The notes under the pieces: model-generated | Database searches by the model: none | Told to the model about the DNA's origin: nothing | The model's input: only the letters and a program-made list of their open reading frames with translations | Translations under genes and position numbers: made by a program | Sequence record: PZ386947.1 | Length of the DNA stretch: 64,000 nucleotides | DNA from: a phage | Direction: 5' to 3' (one strand) | In this document: positions 25,969 to 31,478 of the stretch, one piece after another | How the letters are laid out: every line of letters begins with the position of its first letter | How positions within the stretch are numbered: the stretch's first letter is position 1

Positions 25969-26181
25969 TCATTTTTGTCCTGTATTTACTTTATGCCGAT
26001 GCACGGCCTTAACTTTATCAAGGTATTTTTCAAAATTTCGCAATCTAGTATAGTCTGCCGGAGATTGGTTGAGTGATACTTCTCGACGCAAAGCTGAAAT
26101 GATATTTCCAACTTCCCTACGAATTTCATCTAATTGAAGAACAGTAAGATTGCGAAGTTGCTTTTCAGTTAATTGTAGCAT
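25969..26181 (-). CDS. hypothetical protein (70 aa)
   Basis: ORF track. Confidence 0.5.
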
Positions 26182-26223
26182 ATATACCCCTTTAGTTAGA
26201 TAAACCTATTTATAACTTTTGCA

Positions 26224-26805
26224 CTAACCGAGCTTTTTAGTTAATTCATTCCAATGTTTTCTACACAAAGAAACATAAATTTCATCACCAATACAGATTT
26301 GATTACCTTCTTTAACTGGTGTTCCATCTTCCATTAATCGAGCTGTCATAATAGCTTTTTTACCACAATGACAAACTGCCTTTAGTTCAATAAGTTTATC
26401 TGCAATCGCCAAAAGTTCTTTAGAACCTTCAAATAATTTTCCAGCGAAATCAGTCCTTAGCCCATAAGCCATAACAGGAACATTATATGTATCAACAATT
26501 CGACTTAATTGATGCACCTGTTTAGTTTTTAAAAACTGAGCTTCATCTACAAATACACAATGAATATCTTTTTGTGCTTCAGCCCATTTATAGAACTCAA
26601 AAATATCCATATCATCCGTAATAATATTCGCTTCCTGCTTAATTCCAATGCGAGAAACGACTTCACAGACAGAATCACGAGTATCAATAGCAGGCTTAAG
26701 AACTAATACACCCATTCCGCGTTCTTTATAATTATGTGCAGCAGTCAAAAGAGAAGCAGATTTTCCAGCATTCATTGCTGCGTAAGTAAAAATTAAACTC
26801 GCCAT
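26224..26805 (-). CDS. tk: thymidine kinase
   Basis: 193 aa; P-loop AMNAGKSA; C-terminal zinc ribbon CHCGKKA...C; length matches T4 Tk. Confidence 0.9.
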   Translation of the reverse strand: MASLIFTYAAMNAGKSASLLTAAHNYKERGMGVLVLKPAIDTRDSVCEVVSRIGIKQEANIITDDMDIFEFYKWAEAQKDIHCVFVDEAQFLKTKQVHQLSRIVDTYNVPVMAYGLRTDFAGKLFEGSKELLAIADKLIELKAVCHCGKKAIMTARLMEDGTPVKEGNQICIGDEIYVSLCRKHWNELTKKLG

Positions 26806-26814
26806 ATCACCTTC

Positions 26815-27000
26815 TTAAAGCGTATTCACATAAGCTATTAATTCGTTTTCTTTCTTATCAAACCGATCAGCAAATTCTTCTTGCTGATCGGGAGATAGCG
26901 GGCCGTATTCATCATAAAAGGTGTTTGCTTCTGTATGCTCATCTAGAAGTTCATGGATAAGCTCAAACAATTTATCTTTTTGTTCTTTACTCAGACTCAT
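26815..27000 (-). CDS. hypothetical acidic small protein (61 aa)
   Basis: ORF track. Confidence 0.5.
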   Translation of the reverse strand: MSLSKEQKDKLFELIHELLDEHTEANTFYDEYGPLSPDQQEEFADRFDKKENELIAYVNTL

Positions 27001-27170
27001 ATATTAATTTCCAGGAGTTTTAAAATAATTCGCTTTTGCTTAAATATTTCCATAGTTAAATGACCAGTATCTTTTTGACCGATTCCAATGGCAAAACCTT
27101 TATTGACAGCGAGTTCAATTAAATTATCAAGCTCACGTAACACTTCATATTGTAACTCAAAACTATTCAT
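26997..27170 (-). CDS. hypothetical small protein (57 aa)
   Basis: hand-translated MNSFELQYEVLRELDNLIELAVNKGF...; ATGA overlap with next gene. Confidence 0.3.
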   Translation of the reverse strand: MNSFELQYEVLRELDNLIELAVNKGFAIGIGQKDTGHLTMEIFKQKRIILKLLEINI

Positions 27171-27394
27171 TTCGGTTTACCTTCTTTAACGAAATCAGGA
27201 TAAGGATAAAATCCTGAATAAAATCCTTCACCTTTATGATTGATGCATCCTTTATTAGAACAATAGCACCAATAATCGAAATCACAAGCCATTTCATCAT
27301 TACATAAAGCAAAAACAACTGGCCATTCACACTTTTCGCAGTGGGCATTTTTAAGAATACTGGTTTGGCTCATAACCATGTAACCTTTAAACAA
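27167..27394 (-). CDS. cysteine-rich small protein (putative zinc-binding)
   Basis: 75 aa; 9 Cys, CEKCEW...CNDEMACDFDYWCYCSNKGC. Confidence 0.5.
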   Translation of the reverse strand: MFKGYMVMSQTSILKNAHCEKCEWPVVFALCNDEMACDFDYWCYCSNKGCINHKGEGFYSGFYPYPDFVKEGKPK

Positions 27395-27582
27395 TATTCT
27401 TCTACATGTTGTTTACGACCTTTCCTATCAATAAAGGTATATTCAACGAATGTTCCAATATAGTCTTTATCTACATCATGTGGACTATTAATTGGGCATT
27501 TAGTACGGCAAATGCGTTCCCATTGACGAATAATTTCCACTTTGTTTTTAGGATCAAACGGATGCGGGTAATGTACTTTCAT
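27370..27582 (-). CDS. hypothetical protein (70 aa)
   Basis: ORF track; contains CPINSPHD. Confidence 0.45.
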   Translation of the reverse strand: MKVHYPHPFDPKNKVEIIRQWERICRTKCPINSPHDVDKDYIGTFVEYTFIDRKGRKQHVEEYCLKVTWL

Positions 27583-28033
27583 AATCCACCACTATTAAAT
27601 CAATATCAGGAGTAAACATGTCGATTAATTTAGAAACCTTATCCCAATCGCCGCCAGCAATACCGCAACCTATGCGTGGAATGTAAATTACTGGTTTAAA
27701 CAAAAGGGTTTCTGCCTGTAGATTTAATTCTATCATGCAGTTTACTAAAGCACCATAATCAAGATTAGGACCCGGTTCGTATTGTGTATACAGGTTATAG
27801 CATATACCAAATCCCGTAGGACTATGTTTAAAAACAATAGACATATCGCCTAATTTATCACGAGAACCGTACTCGGTAGTGGTTTTATCTATTTCTAAAA
27901 TTTTGGGATAGGCTCTTGCTAATTGACCCGCTACGCCAGAGCCCATTGTGTGGAAGCAATTGCACCCGTGCGCAATAATATTACCTTGAAGAAATAGGGC
28001 GACAATATCGCCCTTGATATATTTTACAATCAT
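27554..28033 (-). CDS. macro-domain-like protein (ADP-ribose binding/processing fold)
   Basis: 159 aa; N-terminal GDI...GNIIAHGCNCFHTMGSGVAGQLARAYP and later CGIAGG resemble macro domain signatures. Confidence 0.5.
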   Translation of the reverse strand: MIVKYIKGDIVALFLQGNIIAHGCNCFHTMGSGVAGQLARAYPKILEIDKTTTEYGSRDKLGDMSIVFKHSPTGFGICYNLYTQYEPGPNLDYGALVNCMIELNLQAETLLFKPVIYIPRIGCGIAGGDWDKVSKLIDMFTPDIDLIVVDYESTLPASV

Positions 28034-28371
28034 CTAGTACTCAATCCTCGATTATAAGAATCTACTAAACGGTCAACCATTGAATGACAAGCGGCTTTAT
28101 CTTTCTCCTCCGCAACTGAACATTCTAAAGTATTCCACTTTTTAGCATATCGTTTTAACAATGTATCATTTTTATATCTGCTTGATTTATCTCTTTCTCC
28201 GTCTTTATATGCATATATTAATTTCTGCGCAAATTCAGCTTGGCATGCTTTATTTTTCCCACAATAATCCGCGGCAGTACGGTTTACATACTCTCTAATT
28301 TCAGTATATGATGTATCTGCTAACGCAGAAAATGAAATTAATCCTATACATAAAACCAAAATTTTAGTCAT
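28030..28371 (-). CDS. small secreted protein (signal peptide)
   Basis: 113 aa; N-terminal MTKILVLCIGLISFSALA; four Cys. Confidence 0.5.
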   Translation of the reverse strand: MTKILVLCIGLISFSALADTSYTEIREYVNRTAADYCGKNKACQAEFAQKLIYAYKDGERDKSSRYKNDTLLKRYAKKWNTLECSVAEEKDKAACHSMVDRLVDSYNRGLSTR

Positions 28372-28909
28372 TTACTATTTCCAAAAGTTTATTATTTTTA
28401 AGGTAATTAGCCTTTTCTAGGACTTCAGAAGCATATTTAGAACCAGCTTTAACATTCCATCCCGAATTATAAGAGGATATTGCTTTTCTTATATCGCCCT
28501 TATGTATATTTAACCAATAAGAAAGTTCAATGTACGCCCAGGAAGCTGAATTGGATCGTTTATTCAACATTCTTTTTATTTCAGCATCGGTCATATTATA
28601 ACCAAGTTCCTTAACTCTTGCTCGCATAGTAGGCAAATAATTTTGGAACATTCCATAAGCGTGATGCTTTGGTTTAGATTTTAAATTAACTCCGCCAGAG
28701 CTTTCTTGCCATAAAATAGCAGCCATTATATGACCTAATCCGCTCTTGTGGATATTTTTGTGTGTTTTATATTTTCCATCCTTAGAAAATTGTTCCCCGA
28801 ATTGATACGCGTAACGCATGTTATCGAGTTGGACATTACTGAAAGTATGCTCGGAGCTATGTGCCATCATTGAAATGGCCAATAGACCAGCGAGTAGTGC
28901 TTTTCTCAT
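28364..28909 (-). CDS. secreted lytic transglycosylase-like protein
   Basis: 181 aa; signal peptide MRKALLAGLLAISMMAHS; core AAILWQESSG...GMFQN resembles SLT-domain catalytic region. Confidence 0.5.
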   Translation of the reverse strand: MRKALLAGLLAISMMAHSSEHTFSNVQLDNMRYAYQFGEQFSKDGKYKTHKNIHKSGLGHIMAAILWQESSGGVNLKSKPKHHAYGMFQNYLPTMRARVKELGYNMTDAEIKRMLNKRSNSASWAYIELSYWLNIHKGDIRKAISSYNSGWNVKAGSKYASEVLEKANYLKNNKLLEIVND

Positions 28910-28916
28910 GCTTACC

Positions 28917-29378
28917 TCATTGAGTTTTAATTACTGCTTTAGAAGCCTTTCCTGGTAAACGACGACTGTTAATAATTGCCATCCTACATTGAAGTGACGG
29001 GTCTTTGAACTTCGCATTAGGTTTACAAACTGTAAATCCAAGCCAAAGATTTCCATCTGTGATTTCTAAACGTCCAGGACGGTATTCAACCCCATCAATA
29101 AAATCCTCGTCAATGTCAGGACGCGGAGGCATACTCAGGAATTCATTAACTTCTAAAACATGGTCTTTTATTTTGTGGAATAATTCAAAAACATATGTCT
29201 CATCAATCTCCCGTTGAATTGCACGATCAAGAAGATGCTGAGAATATTTTAGATGAAACGATGAGACCCCTGCTGCTTTTGATGCCTCACGAATCTCATT
29301 GTTAATTTGACGAAACTCCGACTCAAAGTGACGACGAAGCTTATTTCGACGGATAAAAACTTCTGTGTTGATAGTCAT
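28917..29378 (-). CDS. regB: endoribonuclease RegB
   Basis: 153 aa; matches recalled T4 RegB sequence (MTINTEVFIRRNKLRRHFESEF...) and length. Confidence 0.85.
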   Translation of the reverse strand: MTINTEVFIRRNKLRRHFESEFRQINNEIREASKAAGVSSFHLKYSQHLLDRAIQREIDETYVFELFHKIKDHVLEVNEFLSMPPRPDIDEDFIDGVEYRPGRLEITDGNLWLGFTVCKPNAKFKDPSLQCRMAIINSRRLPGKASKAVIKTQ

Positions 29379-29404
29379 GTTATTCTCCTCTTAACTGATA
29401 GAAA

Positions 29405-29435
29405 AATTATACCACAGTCAAGAGGAAAAGTAAAC
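29405..29435 (-). promoter_or_regulatory. T4-type early promoter (GTTTAC, 17 nt spacer, TATAAT) upstream of regB
   Basis: minus strand GTTTACttttcctcttgactgtggTATAATttttc. Confidence 0.6.
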
Positions 29436-29437
29436 AG

Positions 29438-29716
29438 TTATTCTTTAAATCTAATCAATTTATTCATAGACTTTGAAACTTCTGCACGGACCTCATGAAG
29501 GTTTTTGAGCTGTTCAAGACGTTGCTCATAGTAAGCAATTTCATCTTCTTCAAGACAGTCCTGTGAATCTTCTTTAAGATAACGTGCATAGTCCTGAAAA
29601 GCTTTACGGACTACTTCCTGGAAGTCATCAAGACTTTGAATTTTCTTAGGAGCAGCAGACACACGACGAGGGGCAGTATAATACTCATAACCAAACCCTG
29701 CGCTTAATTGAGCCAT
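29438..29716 (-). CDS. hypothetical protein
   Basis: ORF track 29438-29758 trimmed to [13 protein letters not shown]... Confidence 0.4.
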
Positions 29717-30018
29717 TAGTATTTTTCCTCTGGTTGGAACACAGCACGACAAGCCCACATACTGGCTTCTTTGAGTTTCGTTTTAGCAATAGCTAAATGA
29801 TCGAGGCTTTCAGCGTAATTCTTCGCGAGTTCAAAGTCTTCGCAATTATCTAGTGCTTCCCAGAATTCATCATATAAAGCATCAAAGATAAGTCCTAAAC
29901 GAACTTCAGCGTCTTTAATAGCATTTACTTTACCGATTTTTTCGTCGGTATGTGGCTTATAACCTTTAATATCTTCAATCATATTTGACTTCCTCACCAG
30001 TACATAAATCGTATTCAA
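29716..30018 (-). CDS. hypothetical protein (100 aa)
   Basis: ORF track. Confidence 0.5.
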
Positions 30019-30196
30019 CTAAACGAATAGGTTCATGAATGCCATATCCTTGAACAGAAATTTCTGTCGTAGGATAAATTCCATTAATATCACCCATGTT
30101 CCATGCTTCGTTAAATTGCTGTTCGCCTGAATTACTAAACCACTCGGCGAAAGCATTTAGCACATCTTCAGAACCTTCAATAATTATCTTTGCCAT
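29975..30196 (-). CDS. hypothetical protein (73 aa)
   Basis: ORF track. Confidence 0.45.
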   Translation of the reverse strand: MAKIIIEGSEDVLNAFAEWFSNSGEQQFNEAWNMGDINGIYPTTEISVQGYGIHEPIRLVEYDLCTGEEVKYD

Positions 30197-30558
30197 TACA
30201 AACTCTCGGTGAAGGTACGAGCGATAACGTCGCGCTGCTGTTCCGGAGTCAGAGAGTTAAAGCGAACTGCATAACCGGATACACGGATGGTCAGCTGCGG
30301 ATATTTTTCCGGATGCTTAACTGCATCTTCCAGAGTTTCACGACGCAGAACGTTAACGTTCAGGTGTTGACCACCTTCAATTTTAACTGTAGGCTGTTGC
30401 TCAATTTCAATTTCACGGGCATGCAAACCATAGAAAATTTCTGGGTCTACAAAAGAGTCCTCTTTAAAGGTTTTAGAGACAATAATTCGTGCTTGAATAC
30501 CATCTTCAAAATAAATAGTACCTTTATGTGTGCCTTCAAGAATTTGATATGCTTTCAT
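30196..30558 (-). CDS. autonomous glycyl radical cofactor (GrcA/YfiD-like)
   Basis: 120 aa; C-terminal ~75 aa essentially identical to recalled E. coli GrcA ([60 protein letters not shown]). Confidence 0.85.
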
Positions 30559-30564
30559 ATAACC

Positions 30565-30891
30565 TCAATTAGAAAATAAATTTATCCAAGATTGTTCTTT
30601 AATTAAAAATGGCTCAGAATCATATGCCATTAAACTCTGTGTGATTAGTCCTTTAAAAGGCCCATCAATAAATTCCATGGTAAAATATGGAATTTTATTC
30701 ATTAGCCGTGCATTAGGAGCCGTGCACAAAACTCTGCATCCTTTGAATACGCCTTTTTGTAATTTGTATTGCTTGGGATAAAATTCGCTCAAAATGTTAT
30801 TTTTTGCCAAAATTTCAAAATGATTCACCAATTTATTTTTAATAGTTTTTGGCGAAAAATAAAGATATTCGAAAAGCTGAGTGTCTGTCAT
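30565..30891 (-). CDS. hypothetical protein
   Basis: ORF track 30565-30945 trimmed to MTDTQLFEY... Confidence 0.4.
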   Translation of the reverse strand: MTDTQLFEYLYFSPKTIKNKLVNHFEILAKNNILSEFYPKQYKLQKGVFKGCRVLCTAPNARLMNKIPYFTMEFIDGPFKGLITQSLMAYDSEPFLIKEQSWINLFSN

Positions 30892-31478
30892 CATTGCATT
30901 CCGATTACGAAAAACTGTGGACGAGTAATACCACCAATGCAACATTTAATATTACAGCAGCAGTGTACAGTGTCAATATGGACACTATAAATCTTATCCA
31001 TATCAGGAGATTTGACAGGCTCATCAATTATATACAAAATTCGCGAAAGCGATAAACCTCTGAACTTGCTTCCTTTATTACCAATAAAACTGCGCACAGA
31101 ATCAGTAAATAAACGAAAACGTATATCATCATTAGAATAACGCGAAAATTCCTTTTTAATATTATCTGCGGAAATTTTAGCGTAAGCTGAAGTATTAGAA
31201 AGAACAATAACTGTTCCACCGTCATACAACCAATTAGCGGCAAAATTAGTTACTGCAGTTGATTTACCAGATTGACGCCCACCATCTAGTCGAAGTGTAC
31301 AATACTGTTTAAGTAAGTCTTCAAATGGCGGGATATATTCGTTTTTACAAATTTCTTCTACTCTAGCATCAGAATGGTGTGTAAAAGCATTCATCAGGGA
31401 TAGATAAGGACCAGTTAAAAATGTTCTCATTTTGTTCTCTCTAGGTTTGGGCCATTCCATGGCGCATGAATTGTCCAT
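30891..31478 (-). CDS. small P-loop NTPase-like protein
   Basis: 195 aa; Walker A GGRQSGKST, Walker B-like ILYIIDEP; start may be internal (MRTFLTGPY). Confidence 0.45.
   Translation of the reverse strand: MDNSCAMEWPKPRENKMRTFLTGPYLSLMNAFTHHSDARVEEICKNEYIPPFEDLLKQYCTLRLDGGRQSGKSTAVTNFAANWLYDGGTVIVLSNTSAYAKISADNIKKEFSRYSNDDIRFRLFTDSVRSFIGNKGSKFRGLSLSRILYIIDEPVKSPDMDKIYSVHIDTVHCCCNIKCCIGGITRPQFFVIGMQ

Follow-up and report, generated by a model that had tools for sequence, protein, structure and literature searches.

Among described phage proteins, the closest to the one analyzed here is the product of phage T4 tk.4 (NP_049723), which has long carried the annotation 'A1pp phosphatase motif' in the T4 reference record. 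In a preprint that provides genetic evidence, tk.4 was the single significant match in a T4 transposon screen on a DarTG2-expressing host, and a clean tk.4 knockout sensitised T4 to DarTG2 (bioRxiv 10.1101/2025.11.20.689424); because of this sensitisation, Tk.4 was named AdfM (anti-DarT factor Macrodomain). The same name is borne by PhiKZ gp104 (Cell Rep 2026), which removes DarT2-made ADP-ribose in vitro and shows reduced activity when Asn23 is replaced by alanine (PMC13309987). Apart from these two reports, the literature matches listed include no further phage paper on AdfM. Among cellular proteins, SCO6735 of Streptomyces coelicolor, encoded by a chromosomal, DNA-damage-inducible gene, strips DNA of ADP-ribose linked to thymidine and can rescue cells from the action of DarT; Gln85 and Asn27 are needed for this, the Q85A variant being inactive and N27S almost dead, and Gly126 and Gly128 have been functionally implicated as well (PMC9411070). 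A parallel logic applies to AdfN, the anti-DarTG1 NADAR protein of T4, likewise an orphan antitoxin-like hydrolase of T-even phages that erases DarT-made DNA ADP-ribosylation, although its fold is unrelated and its substrate is guanine-ADP-ribose made by DarT1 rather than thymidine-ADP-ribose made by DarT2 (PMC11825919).

Identity and genomic position of the gene

The DNA analyzed here (64,000 nucleotides, record PZ386947.1; hereafter the window) belongs to a T4-like phage; the 3.2 kb searched match Shigella phage CM8 at 100% identity. The initial annotation had reported a 159 aa ORF with two macro-like motifs in the tk-regB interval, leaving the strand unstated. Both motifs are present in the ORF translation, namely GDIVALFLQGNIIAHGCNCFHTMGSGVAGQLARAYP (residues 8-43) and CGIAGG (residues 123-128), and the placement agrees with the positions of the genes for Tk (26224-26805, 98% identical to T4 Tk) and RegB (28917-29378, 99% identical to T4 RegB). 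The gene itself is the following:

27554..28033, minus strand: macrodomain coding sequence (counterpart of tk.4/adfM), an ATG-initiated ORF encoding a single-domain protein of 159 aa

The start of this ORF overlaps the stop codon of vs (ATGA, 28030-28033), the product matches PHROG_335 (E=1e-71), homologues of the tk.4 family are present in 2,790 phage records, and comparison of the window allele with a 93%-identical Dhakavirus allele yields a dN/dS of 0.07 at a dS of 0.65. Thus, this is a genuine gene, not a chance ORF, and it is maintained under purifying selection. It occupies the slot between vs and tk.3, as tk.4 does in T4, and its product aligns with T4 Tk.4 over 155 aa without gaps (58% identity, 74% positives, E=1e-70), whereas the flanking Vs and Tk.3 proteins are 97% and 91% identical to their T4 counterparts. 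The two proteins are also of near-equal length (155 aa in T4 vs 159 aa in the window) and share the assignment to PHROG_335 and the invariant residues discussed below, including N25 and Q84. Judged from sequence similarity and gene order, the gene is the positional orthologue of T4 tk.4 (adfM), an identity that the initial annotation had missed. As a macro-domain counterpart of tk.4, the gene is of a kind already known; the labels under which databases widely list genes of this family ('phosphatase', 'RNase III inhibitor', 'leucine aminopeptidase') are misleading.

A scan of positions 26000-31000 for sigma-70 promoters returned 16 sites, compared with 18.6 expected from shuffled sequences, and is not informative; the sole plausible-looking site in this region is regB-proximal (29434-29406).

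Fold, class and active site

The macro-domain call, together with the proposed ADP-ribose-binding signatures, is confirmed by Pfam, by profile searches against PDB and by fold prediction, at levels well beyond what chance would give, so that the profile and structure checks suggested with the initial annotation gave significant macro matches and a predicted macro fold. Pfam family PF01661 (Macro) is matched with 32 bits (gathering cut-off 22, E=1.3e-7), residues 22-136 of the protein corresponding to model positions 2-117 of 118. A family profile searched against PDB retrieved ALC1-like macrodomains with E values from 1e-19 to 6e-10 (among individual proteins, Bt_1257 at 1e-19, TARG1 at 2e-16, SCO6735 at 5e-16, Poa1p at 5e-15 and DarG at 3e-11) and nsp3 Mac1 at 4.5e-3. 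The AlphaFold2 model (pLDDT 94.8, with low values for residues 157-159) predicts a three-layer alpha/beta/alpha macro fold, for which the top Foldseek matches are TARG1, Bt_1257, Poa1p, DarG and SCO6735 (probability 1.00, TM 0.7-0.84). The best 50 of 161 Foldseek matches (E<=0.001) are all solved macrodomains or engineered proteins on a macrodomain scaffold, again with probability 1.00. On the strength of these profiles and of the model, the protein is assigned to the ALC1-like macrodomain class, rather than to MacroD, PARG or viral Mac1; the order of the Foldseek matches agrees with that of the profile matches.

Two narrower assignments were considered and rejected. The models for the MacroD/YmdB O-acetyl-ADP-ribose deacetylases score far below their cut-offs (NF001661, 15.7 bits vs 291; NF001667, 11.5 bits vs 252). 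In the PADLOC and NCBIfam libraries, a DarG model is either the top match or the sole one, although the scores are weak: the DarG equivalog NF048014 gives 27.7 bits vs a cut-off of 250, only positions 2-142 of its 338 being matched, and the PADLOC DarG model gives 27.5 bits for the window protein vs 132.9 bits for PhiKZ gp104. Membership in DarG is further contradicted by the lack of the FPTK catalytic Lys and of the C-terminal DarT-binding domain, and by the neighbours of the gene, which are vs and tk.3 and not darT.

The predicted active site comprises three segments:

27956..27970, minus strand: first active-site loop, H22-G23-C24-N25-C26, from profile alignments and conservation
27782..27796, minus strand: codons of N80-L81-Y82-T83-Q84, from alignment to TARG1, DarG, Bt_1257 and SCO6735
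27644..27679, minus strand: phosphate-binding loop, P119-R-I-G122-C-G124-I-A126-G-G-D-W130, from alignments and conservation

Across 65 family members, over which conservation was judged, H22, G23, N25 and C26 of the first loop are invariant, as are N80, Y82 and Q84 of the second segment, in which T83 is nearly so. The equivalences to SCO6735 and DarG are indirect, obtained from profile alignments through Bt_1257 and PhiKZ gp104 queries and hmmsearch. In these alignments, N25 falls on N22 of DarG, N23 of PhiKZ AdfM and N27 of SCO6735; H22 falls on H24 of SCO6735 and H23 of Poa1p; and Q84 falls on the catalytic Lys of TARG1 (K84), DarG (K80) and PhiKZ AdfM (K78) and on the essential Gln85 of SCO6735. 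The phosphate-binding loop is nearly identical to that of SCO6735 and Bt_1257 (PRIGCGLAGG.W). Altogether, Q84, N25, H22, G122 and G124, all five invariant in the 65 members, correspond to Q85, N27, H24, G126 and G128 of SCO6735. The T4 allele reads PRIGAGIGKGNW at the phosphate-binding loop, that is, GAGIGKGNW where the window protein has GCGIAGGDW.

SCO6735 (PDB 5E3B) and Bt_1257 of Bacteroides (PDB 2FG1) match the window protein better in sequence than any other solved structure, at an identity of only about 25%, and resemble it in being single-domain, in lying outside a toxin-antitoxin operon, and in having a Gln at the catalytic position locked by an Asn, along with a conserved His. There are nevertheless differences from SCO6735: its Val25, described as an SCO6735-specific feature (Val/Ile; PMC9411070), is replaced by Gly23, invariant in the phage family; the mobile loop that follows the Gln has about 5-6 fewer residues, with Lys89 and Lys94 missing; and the window protein is phage-encoded rather than chromosomal. 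The best fold match is human TARG1/OARD1 (PDB 4J5R, 4J5S; Foldseek E=6e-10, TM up to 0.84), which shares the PRIGCG loop and a similar size with the window protein but has a Lys84/Asp125 dyad in place of Gln84 and Ala126. DarG of T. aquaticus and M. tuberculosis (PDB 5M31, 5M3E, 5M3I) belongs to the same fold class (TM about 0.75). DarG, PhiKZ gp104 and the window protein have the Asn in common (N22, N23 and N25, respectively) and, presumably, also the substrate, thymidine-ADP-ribose made by DarT2 on single-stranded DNA; in contrast, DarG and PhiKZ AdfM carry an FPTK..WR motif with a catalytic Lys (K80 and K78) where the window protein has NLYTQ with a Gln, and DarG possesses a second domain that binds DarT, which the window protein lacks. 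PhiKZ gp104 has the same biological role in its phage as is presumed for the window protein, yet BLASTP aligns only 23 residues of the two. Given this alignment, the Lys vs Gln motif and the PADLOC scores, the two phage AdfM proteins represent separate lineages of the same class.

Predicted function and competing explanations

We consider it likely, by analogy with these proteins, that the gene product, corresponding to Tk.4/AdfM of T4, is an ADP-ribosyl hydrolase consisting of a stand-alone macrodomain and that it counters DarTG2-type systems. In such a scheme, infection would free the host toxin DarT2, which would modify thymidines of single-stranded DNA with ADP-ribose and so block phage replication; the phage enzyme would hold the ADP-ribose in the macro cleft and cleave the thymine-ribose bond, restoring normal DNA, and would thus play the role of an 'orphan antitoxin'. 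The chemistry would probably resemble that of SCO6735 and not that of DarG, with the invariant Gln84, held by the invariant Asn25, positioning the distal ribose for hydrolysis by water in a site devoid of both a catalytic Lys and the Lys/Asp dyad of TARG1. The suggestion of the initial annotation that the protein might counter host ADP-ribosylating defences gains support from its orthologue, T4 tk.4, which was the only significant match in the DarTG2 screen and the knockout of which sensitises T4 to this system. The window allele, 58% identical to T4 Tk.4, would probably have the same activity and target. Several features argue against this reading: the limited identity to T4 Tk.4, with a differing phosphate-binding loop; the absence of the DarG Lys and DarT-binding domain and of the longer, Lys-bearing DNA-binding loop of SCO6735, with Gly in place of Val25; and the presence of H22 and T29, equivalents of Poa1p H23 and S30, which is compatible with a small-molecule phosphatase activity.

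This last point bears on the legacy annotation of the family ('phosphatase', 'A1pp', 'O-acetyl-ADP-ribose deacetylase', 'RNase III regulator') as a metabolite enzyme that hydrolyses ADP-ribose-1''-phosphate or O-acetyl-ADP-ribose, like yeast Poa1p or E. coli YmdB. Poa1p indeed ranks near the top in both sequence and fold comparisons, and the database names 'phosphatase' and 'O-acetyl-ADP-ribose deacetylase' point in the same direction. Of the residues probed in Poa1p structures (H23, S30 and F152), H23 and S30 align with H22 and T29; the C-terminal half aligns poorly (9.9 bits). The bad failure of the YmdB/MacroD models, such as NF001661, and the position of YmdB at rank 48 in the Foldseek search speak against such an activity, which would also leave the DarTG2-specific phenotype of T4 tk.4 unexplained. 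Furthermore, RNA repair in T4 by Pnk and Rnl1 leaves no 2'-phosphate, and we therefore know of no source of ADP-ribose-1''-phosphate in T4-infected E. coli. A role in metabolite hydrolysis thus seems quite improbable to us.

A more serious competitor, if still an unlikely one, is a broad-spectrum eraser of ADP-ribose, selected mainly to act on targets modified by other ADP-ribosylating defences or toxins of the host, for which the ends or bases of RNA and Asp/Glu-linked ADP-ribose on proteins are candidates, with reversal of DarT2 modification being one activity among others or incidental. The substrates of SCO6735 and TARG1 include proteins as well as DNA (PMC9411070), and the 2,790 phage records cover hosts including Pseudomonas, Vibrio, Acinetobacter, Campylobacter and Bacillus, a range broader than a single defence system might lead one to expect; the deep diversity of alleles could likewise mirror different targets. 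Against this stand the depletion of tk.4 specifically on DarTG2 in the T4 screens (bioRxiv 10.1101/2025.11.20.689424) and the report, in a 2024 paper, that the mRNA-ADP-ribosylating system CmdTAC robustly defends against T-even phages, which carry tk.4.

The invariant residues, for their part, are relevant to the proposal that the protein is mainly a stoichiometric inhibitor of DarT2 or an ADP-ribose binder, which would protect not by hydrolysis but by attaching to the toxin or to DNA that carries the modification. In vitro, inhibition of DarT is seen with all three catalytically dead variants, SCO6735 Q85A, DarG K80A and TARG1 K84A, and is strongest with SCO6735 (PMC9411070), and AdfB of ICP1 acts through direct interaction. 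However, invariance across the tk.4 family of all residues required for catalysis in SCO6735 would be unexpected for a pure binder, and the C-terminal DarT-binding domain of DarG is missing, which makes protection by binding very improbable in our estimate.

The initial annotation had also raised, as its first suggestion, the possibility that the protein tunes the phage's own ADP-ribosylation, that is, erases or reads the ADP-ribose or RNA chains placed on host proteins by Alt, ModA and ModB. With three ADP-ribosyltransferases in T-even phages, the combination of writer and eraser in one genome is suggestive, but the linkage made by these enzymes, to arginine, is the wrong one: Arg-ADP-ribose is cleaved by DraG/ARH, whereas TARG1/MacroD-like enzymes cleave ester-linked ADP-ribose (PMC8120803). 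A survey of Mod-type transferases located them in 1,011 phage records, without exception from enterobacterial T-evens, compared with the 2,790 records with the macro family, and therefore most carriers of the family lack them. In addition, the transposon screen gave no phenotype on a plain K-12 host (bioRxiv 10.1101/2025.11.20.689424). Of all the explanations weighed here, this one is not supported and is the least probable.

Mosaic structure of the locus and its implications

In addition to the coding sequence as a whole, three segments of the locus are relevant to the origin of the window allele:

27996..28014, minus strand: GC-rich hairpin AGGGCGAT-ATT-GTCGCCCT followed by a U-rich tail (terminator-like), at codons 7-13, from a scan for terminator-like elements
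27583..27995, minus strand: divergent 'cassette', from DNA alignment and sliding-window identities
27554..27582, minus strand: 29-nt overlap of the 3' end of the macro ORF with the start of tk.3, from the ORF list and DNA alignment to T4

In sliding windows, the cassette DNA is 47-82% identical to T4 and 80-95% identical to the Dhakavirus phage dhaeg, whereas its flanks show the reverse pattern, being 97-100% identical to T4. The encoded protein is 93% identical to the dhaeg version, and alleles of the window type are common (about 313 records). The alignments place a Dhakavirus-like allele in a Tequatrovirus backbone and show a mosaic origin of the allele. The overlap with tk.3 is also found in dhaeg; owing to a 13-nt indel relative to T4, the C-terminus of the protein differs from that of T4 Tk.4 and becomes ...VVDYESTLPASV.

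The first 13 codons, including the 5' hairpin, are identical in the window gene and T4 tk.4. The hairpin has a computed folding energy of -12.9 kcal/mol (RNAfold), its codons are identical in 5 alleles from 3 genera, and compensatory changes in the stem occur in some other lineages; over the whole family, the number of covarying pairs is modest because about two thirds of the members lack the hairpin, which is therefore noted here as a side observation. The left edge of the cassette falls at this hairpin.

Gene neighbourhoods were examined for two homologues. The one clear bacterial case, from Pelagimonas (40% identity), stands alone and has no DarT gene beside it, and the other protein lies on a phage contig. 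An origin from a DarTG operon thus gains no support from the nearest cellular homologue in this set.

A broader proposal is that the tk.4/adfM slot is an exchangeable counter-defence cassette in which deeply diverged alleles are recombined between T-even genera. Under this proposal, which we put forward as a doubtful one, alleles of the CM8/Dhakavirus, T4 and Mosigvirus types would be swapped among these genera, the crossovers falling at the conserved 5' hairpin on the left and within tk.3 on the right; which DarT2 variants or ADP-ribosylated substrates are neutralised may vary with the allele, and the conserved terminator-like hairpin could also gate tk.4 expression. If the slot is indeed exchanged in this manner, the type of allele would help to set host range.

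The basic picture was already supplied by the literature and is left unchanged by this analysis. The name AdfM now covers two unrelated lineages, a Lys-type, DarG-like PhiKZ family (276 phage records) and a Gln-type, SCO6735-like Tk.4 family (about 2,790 records). Defence against phages by DarTG systems is widespread among enterobacteria, and the range of E. coli and Shigella strains that a T4-like phage can kill should be influenced both by the presence of a working adfM and by the allele carried, which is relevant to the choice of therapeutic phages.

A macrodomain gene between tk and regB

The initial annotation placed a macro-domain-like protein in the tk-regB interval on the strength of the motif strings GDIVALFLQGNIIAHGCNCFHTMGSGVAGQLARAYP and CGIAGG. 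Both strings are found in the translation of the 27554..28033 ORF, and the location is borne out by the Tk and RegB homologs; the segment 26200-29400 is 100% identical to that of Shigella phage CM8 (Tequatrovirus).

Features of the tk-regB interval
26224-26805, Tk, 98% identical to T4 Tk
26815-27000, minus strand, small ORF, PHROG_653, T4 Tk.2-like
26997-27170, minus strand, small ORF, PHROG_3452
27167-27373, minus strand, small ORF, PHROG_2306, Cys-rich 68 aa protein
27554..28033, minus strand, macro ORF, ATG start, 159 aa
27996-28014, minus strand, hairpin AGGGCGAT-ATT-GTCGCCCT, codons 7-13 (K G D I V A L) of the macro ORF
28364-28909, minus strand, vs.1, Vs.1 homolog of 181 aa with a signal-peptide-like N-terminus
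28917-29378, RegB, 99% identical to T4 RegB

At its start, the macro ORF overlaps the upstream stop codon (ATGA, 28030-28033), and 29 nt at its 3' end are shared with the next gene. The Vs.1 homolog shows weak matches to PHROG families of lytic tail proteins and endolysins (E 1e-5 to 5e-4), which suggests a lytic-transglycosylase-like domain; in the RefSeq CM8 record, vs.1 and other nearby genes carry the misleading note 'Endoribonuclease RegB'.

The protein matches the Pfam Macro model PF01661 with 32 bits (gathering cut-off 22) over 116 of the 118 model positions. A single-sequence search of solved structures retrieved Bt_1257 (4e-10), yeast Poa1p (2e-9), SCO6735 (9e-8), Mycobacterium tuberculosis DarG (5e-5) and human TARG1 (0.01), and a profile built from 65 homologs strengthened these matches to 1e-19, 5e-15, 5e-16, 3e-11 and 2e-16, respectively. 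An AlphaFold2 model derived from the 65-homolog alignment (mean pLDDT 94.8) has a macro fold, with TARG1, Bt_1257, Poa1p, DarG from three species and SCO6735 as the best Foldseek matches in the PDB (TM 0.7-0.84), and coronavirus Mac1 and Escherichia coli YmdB lower in the ranking. Since profile and predicted fold both point to a macro domain, the structural reading stands, and within the macrodomains the protein is of the ALC1-like class.

The T4 counterpart and a probable role against DarTG2

Between vs and tk.3, the T4 reference genome carries tk.4 (155 aa), whose product aligns with the window protein end to end, without gaps and with 58% identity; the window protein falls in PHROG_335. When transposon insertions in T4 were screened on bacteria that express DarTG2, a DNA-ADP-ribosylating toxin-antitoxin defense, tk.4 was the single significant hit, and a clean knockout rendered T4 sensitive to DarTG2; the gene was named adfM (anti-DarT factor Macrodomain) and proposed to remove ADP-ribose from DNA enzymatically (bioRxiv 10.1101/2025.11.20.689424, November 2025 preprint). 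DarT2 ADP-ribosylates thymidines in single-stranded DNA, a modification reversed by the macrodomain of the cognate antitoxin DarG2. Independently, PhiKZ gp104, also named AdfM, has been reported to remove DarT2-made ADP-ribose in vitro (Cell Rep 2026, PMC13309987). Given the T4 and PhiKZ results, the suggestion that the phage macro domain counters host ADP-ribosylating defenses is the one that gains support, and by analogy the window protein is probably a DNA de-ADP-ribosylating anti-DarTG2 factor; we hold our confidence at this level because the T4 genetics comes from a preprint and the function of the window allele is inferred from that of the T4 allele.

The other suggestion, that the protein tunes the phage's own ADP-ribosylation, appears unlikely on grounds of both chemistry and distribution. 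T4 Alt, ModA and ModB target arginine residues. Removing ADP-ribose from arginine is the work of DraG/ARH-type enzymes, and the linkage broken by TARG1- and MacroD-like macrodomains is instead an ester (review PMC8120803). By tblastn, members of the macro family were detected in 2,790 phage records, including phages of Pseudomonas (184), Vibrio (137), Acinetobacter (93) and Aeromonas (86), far beyond the 1,011 records with ModB-like transferases, every one of which is an enterobacterial T-even phage.

Family members are variously labeled in phage records as 'phosphatase', 'RNase III inhibitor', 'leucine aminopeptidase', 'ADP-ribosyltransferase', 'macro domain protein' or 'hypothetical protein', and T4 tk.4 itself as 'phosphatase; contains A1pp phosphatase motif'. 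The legacy assignments as a phosphatase or an O-acetyl-ADP-ribose deacetylase/RNase III regulator are weakly founded, YmdB-type models scoring 15.7 bits against a cut-off of 291; the presence of the Poa1p-like residues H22 and T29 nevertheless makes a small-molecule activity possible on sequence grounds.

A Gln-type active site and two AdfM lineages

Fourteen positions are invariant in the 65-member alignment (H22, G23, N25, C26, G33, A35, D49, N80, Y82, Q84, P119, G122, G124 and W130). In profile alignments, the family motif NLYTQ84 falls on YLITK84 of TARG1 and NFPTK80 of DarG, and A126 on D125 of TARG1, so that Gln and Ala stand in for the Lys (or Lys/Asp dyad) of DarG/TARG1 catalysis. This substitution is also known from SCO6735 of Streptomyces coelicolor, which strips thymidine-linked ADP-ribose from DNA and shields cells from DarT; there, Gln85 occupies the Lys position and is locked by Asn27, the Q85A mutant is dead and N27S nearly so (PMC9411070). 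SCO6735 numbering was verified on the chain from the Bt_1257 PDB search (E=3e-54), in which AHV45 and GQ105, minus a 20-residue tag, give Val25 and Gln85. SCO6735 residues H24, N27, Q85, G126 and G128 correspond to H22, N25, Q84, G122 and G124 of the window protein, all five invariant in the family, and the PRIGCG(I/L)AGG.W loop is nearly identical in the two proteins. The differences are Gly23 in place of Val25, the role of which has been proposed to involve the backbone oxygen (PMC9411070), and the missing SCO6735 mobile loop, which is five residues longer and carries Lys89 and Lys94. Catalytically dead SCO6735 still inhibits DarT, which makes a purely stoichiometric DarT inhibitor conceivable; the invariance of the catalytic residues favors catalysis.

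The PhiKZ protein, in contrast, is a true DarG-type domain: it matches M. tuberculosis DarG with E=9e-25, contains the motif FPTKdnWR and scores 133 bits on the PADLOC DarG model. On the latter the window protein reaches 27.5 bits, and on the NCBIfam DarG equivalog 27.7 bits, below the cut-off of 250; its BLASTP alignment with gp104 spans only 23 residues. The two phage AdfMs therefore represent separate lineages within one class, the Tk.4 type being about ten times more common in sequenced phages (2,790 versus 276 records).

The nearest clearly cellular homolog examined, from Pelagimonas (40% identity), stands alone on the chromosome and has no DarT gene beside it, and SCO6735 and Bt_1257 are stand-alone genes as well; this one neighborhood and these two proteins fit an origin from a 'genome-guardian' macrodomain rather than a DarG antitoxin. 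In metagenomic contigs of an unrelated large phage (L006/L008, 1541-1888 and 6001-6447), a homolog with 43% identity (P0095) is separated by about 4 kb from a gene of the Pfam Acb5 family, which, judging by its name, we take to be anti-CBASS, with a nucleotidyltransferase nearby, hinting at a counter-defense gene neighborhood.

A mosaic allele and its 5' hairpin

Compared to T4, the flanking proteins are 91-99% identical and the macro protein 58%. DNA identity to T4 is 97-100% across vs.1, vs and the first 38 nt of the macro ORF, drops to 47-82% between 27995 and about 27583 and recovers to 85-98% in tk.3. Compared with Dhakavirus dhaeg, it is vs.1 and vs that have the lower values (40-85%) and the macro ORF the higher ones (80-95%), which indicates a Tequatrovirus backbone carrying a Dhakavirus-like allele. 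The window allele class (at least 90% identity) is represented in about 313 phage records and the T4 class in about 224; a subclass at 80-90%, seen in Mosigvirus AlbertHofmann (84.5%), accounts for about 159. Purifying selection on the gene is strong within allele classes (dN/dS 0.07 for window versus dhaeg, dS 0.65; 0.068 for T4 versus AlbertHofmann), and between classes synonymous sites are saturated. All active-site residues are common to the allele classes; the phosphate-binding loop is GCGIAGG in the window allele, nearer the family consensus and SCO6735 than GAGIGKG of T4, and the classes may differ in specificity.

Between tk.3 and tk, the block 26815-27373 (minus strand) is not collinear with T4 (30-50% DNA identity); its 27167-27373 ORF, which has no T4 equivalent at the same place, shows 80-90% DNA identity to AlbertHofmann. 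This block is a second mosaic segment adjoining the macro cassette.

On its left side, the divergent cassette has its recombination boundary at the hairpin, which has a GC-rich 8 bp stem (-12.9 kcal/mol) with a U-rich tail after it and is terminator-like by a simple scan. Its codons are identical in five alleles from three genera (Tequatro-, Dhaka- and Mosigvirus), save for one variable loop base, despite the saturation of synonymous sites elsewhere. Compensated versions occur in other lineages, in the sequences L028/L032, L038, L041 and A6-1. Paired changes preserve the stem in L028 and L032 (AAAGGCGAC...GTCGCCTT), where both are synonymous, and in rV5-like phages (GGGAGAT...ATCTCCC), where they bring an Ala to Ser change. 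Of the 65 distinct 5' ends, 21 surpass 95% or more of their synonymous-codon shuffles in stability. The hairpin is absent from many family members, e.g., Jiaodavirus, and pairing over the whole set exceeds controls only modestly (61.7% versus 58.6±0.9 for shuffles and 28-52% for slid controls). Possible functions are termination or attenuation of transcription, stabilization of the vs mRNA, or a part as recombination anchor. Some records (vB_EcoM_SP1, Murica) have a 'terminator' annotated under the macro match.

The macro-domain observation is confirmed and its earlier reading supported; the gene is of an already known kind, a member of the T4 tk.4/adfM family, to which the present analysis makes the modest additions of a Gln-type active site, two AdfM lineages, a mosaic allele and a 5' hairpin.
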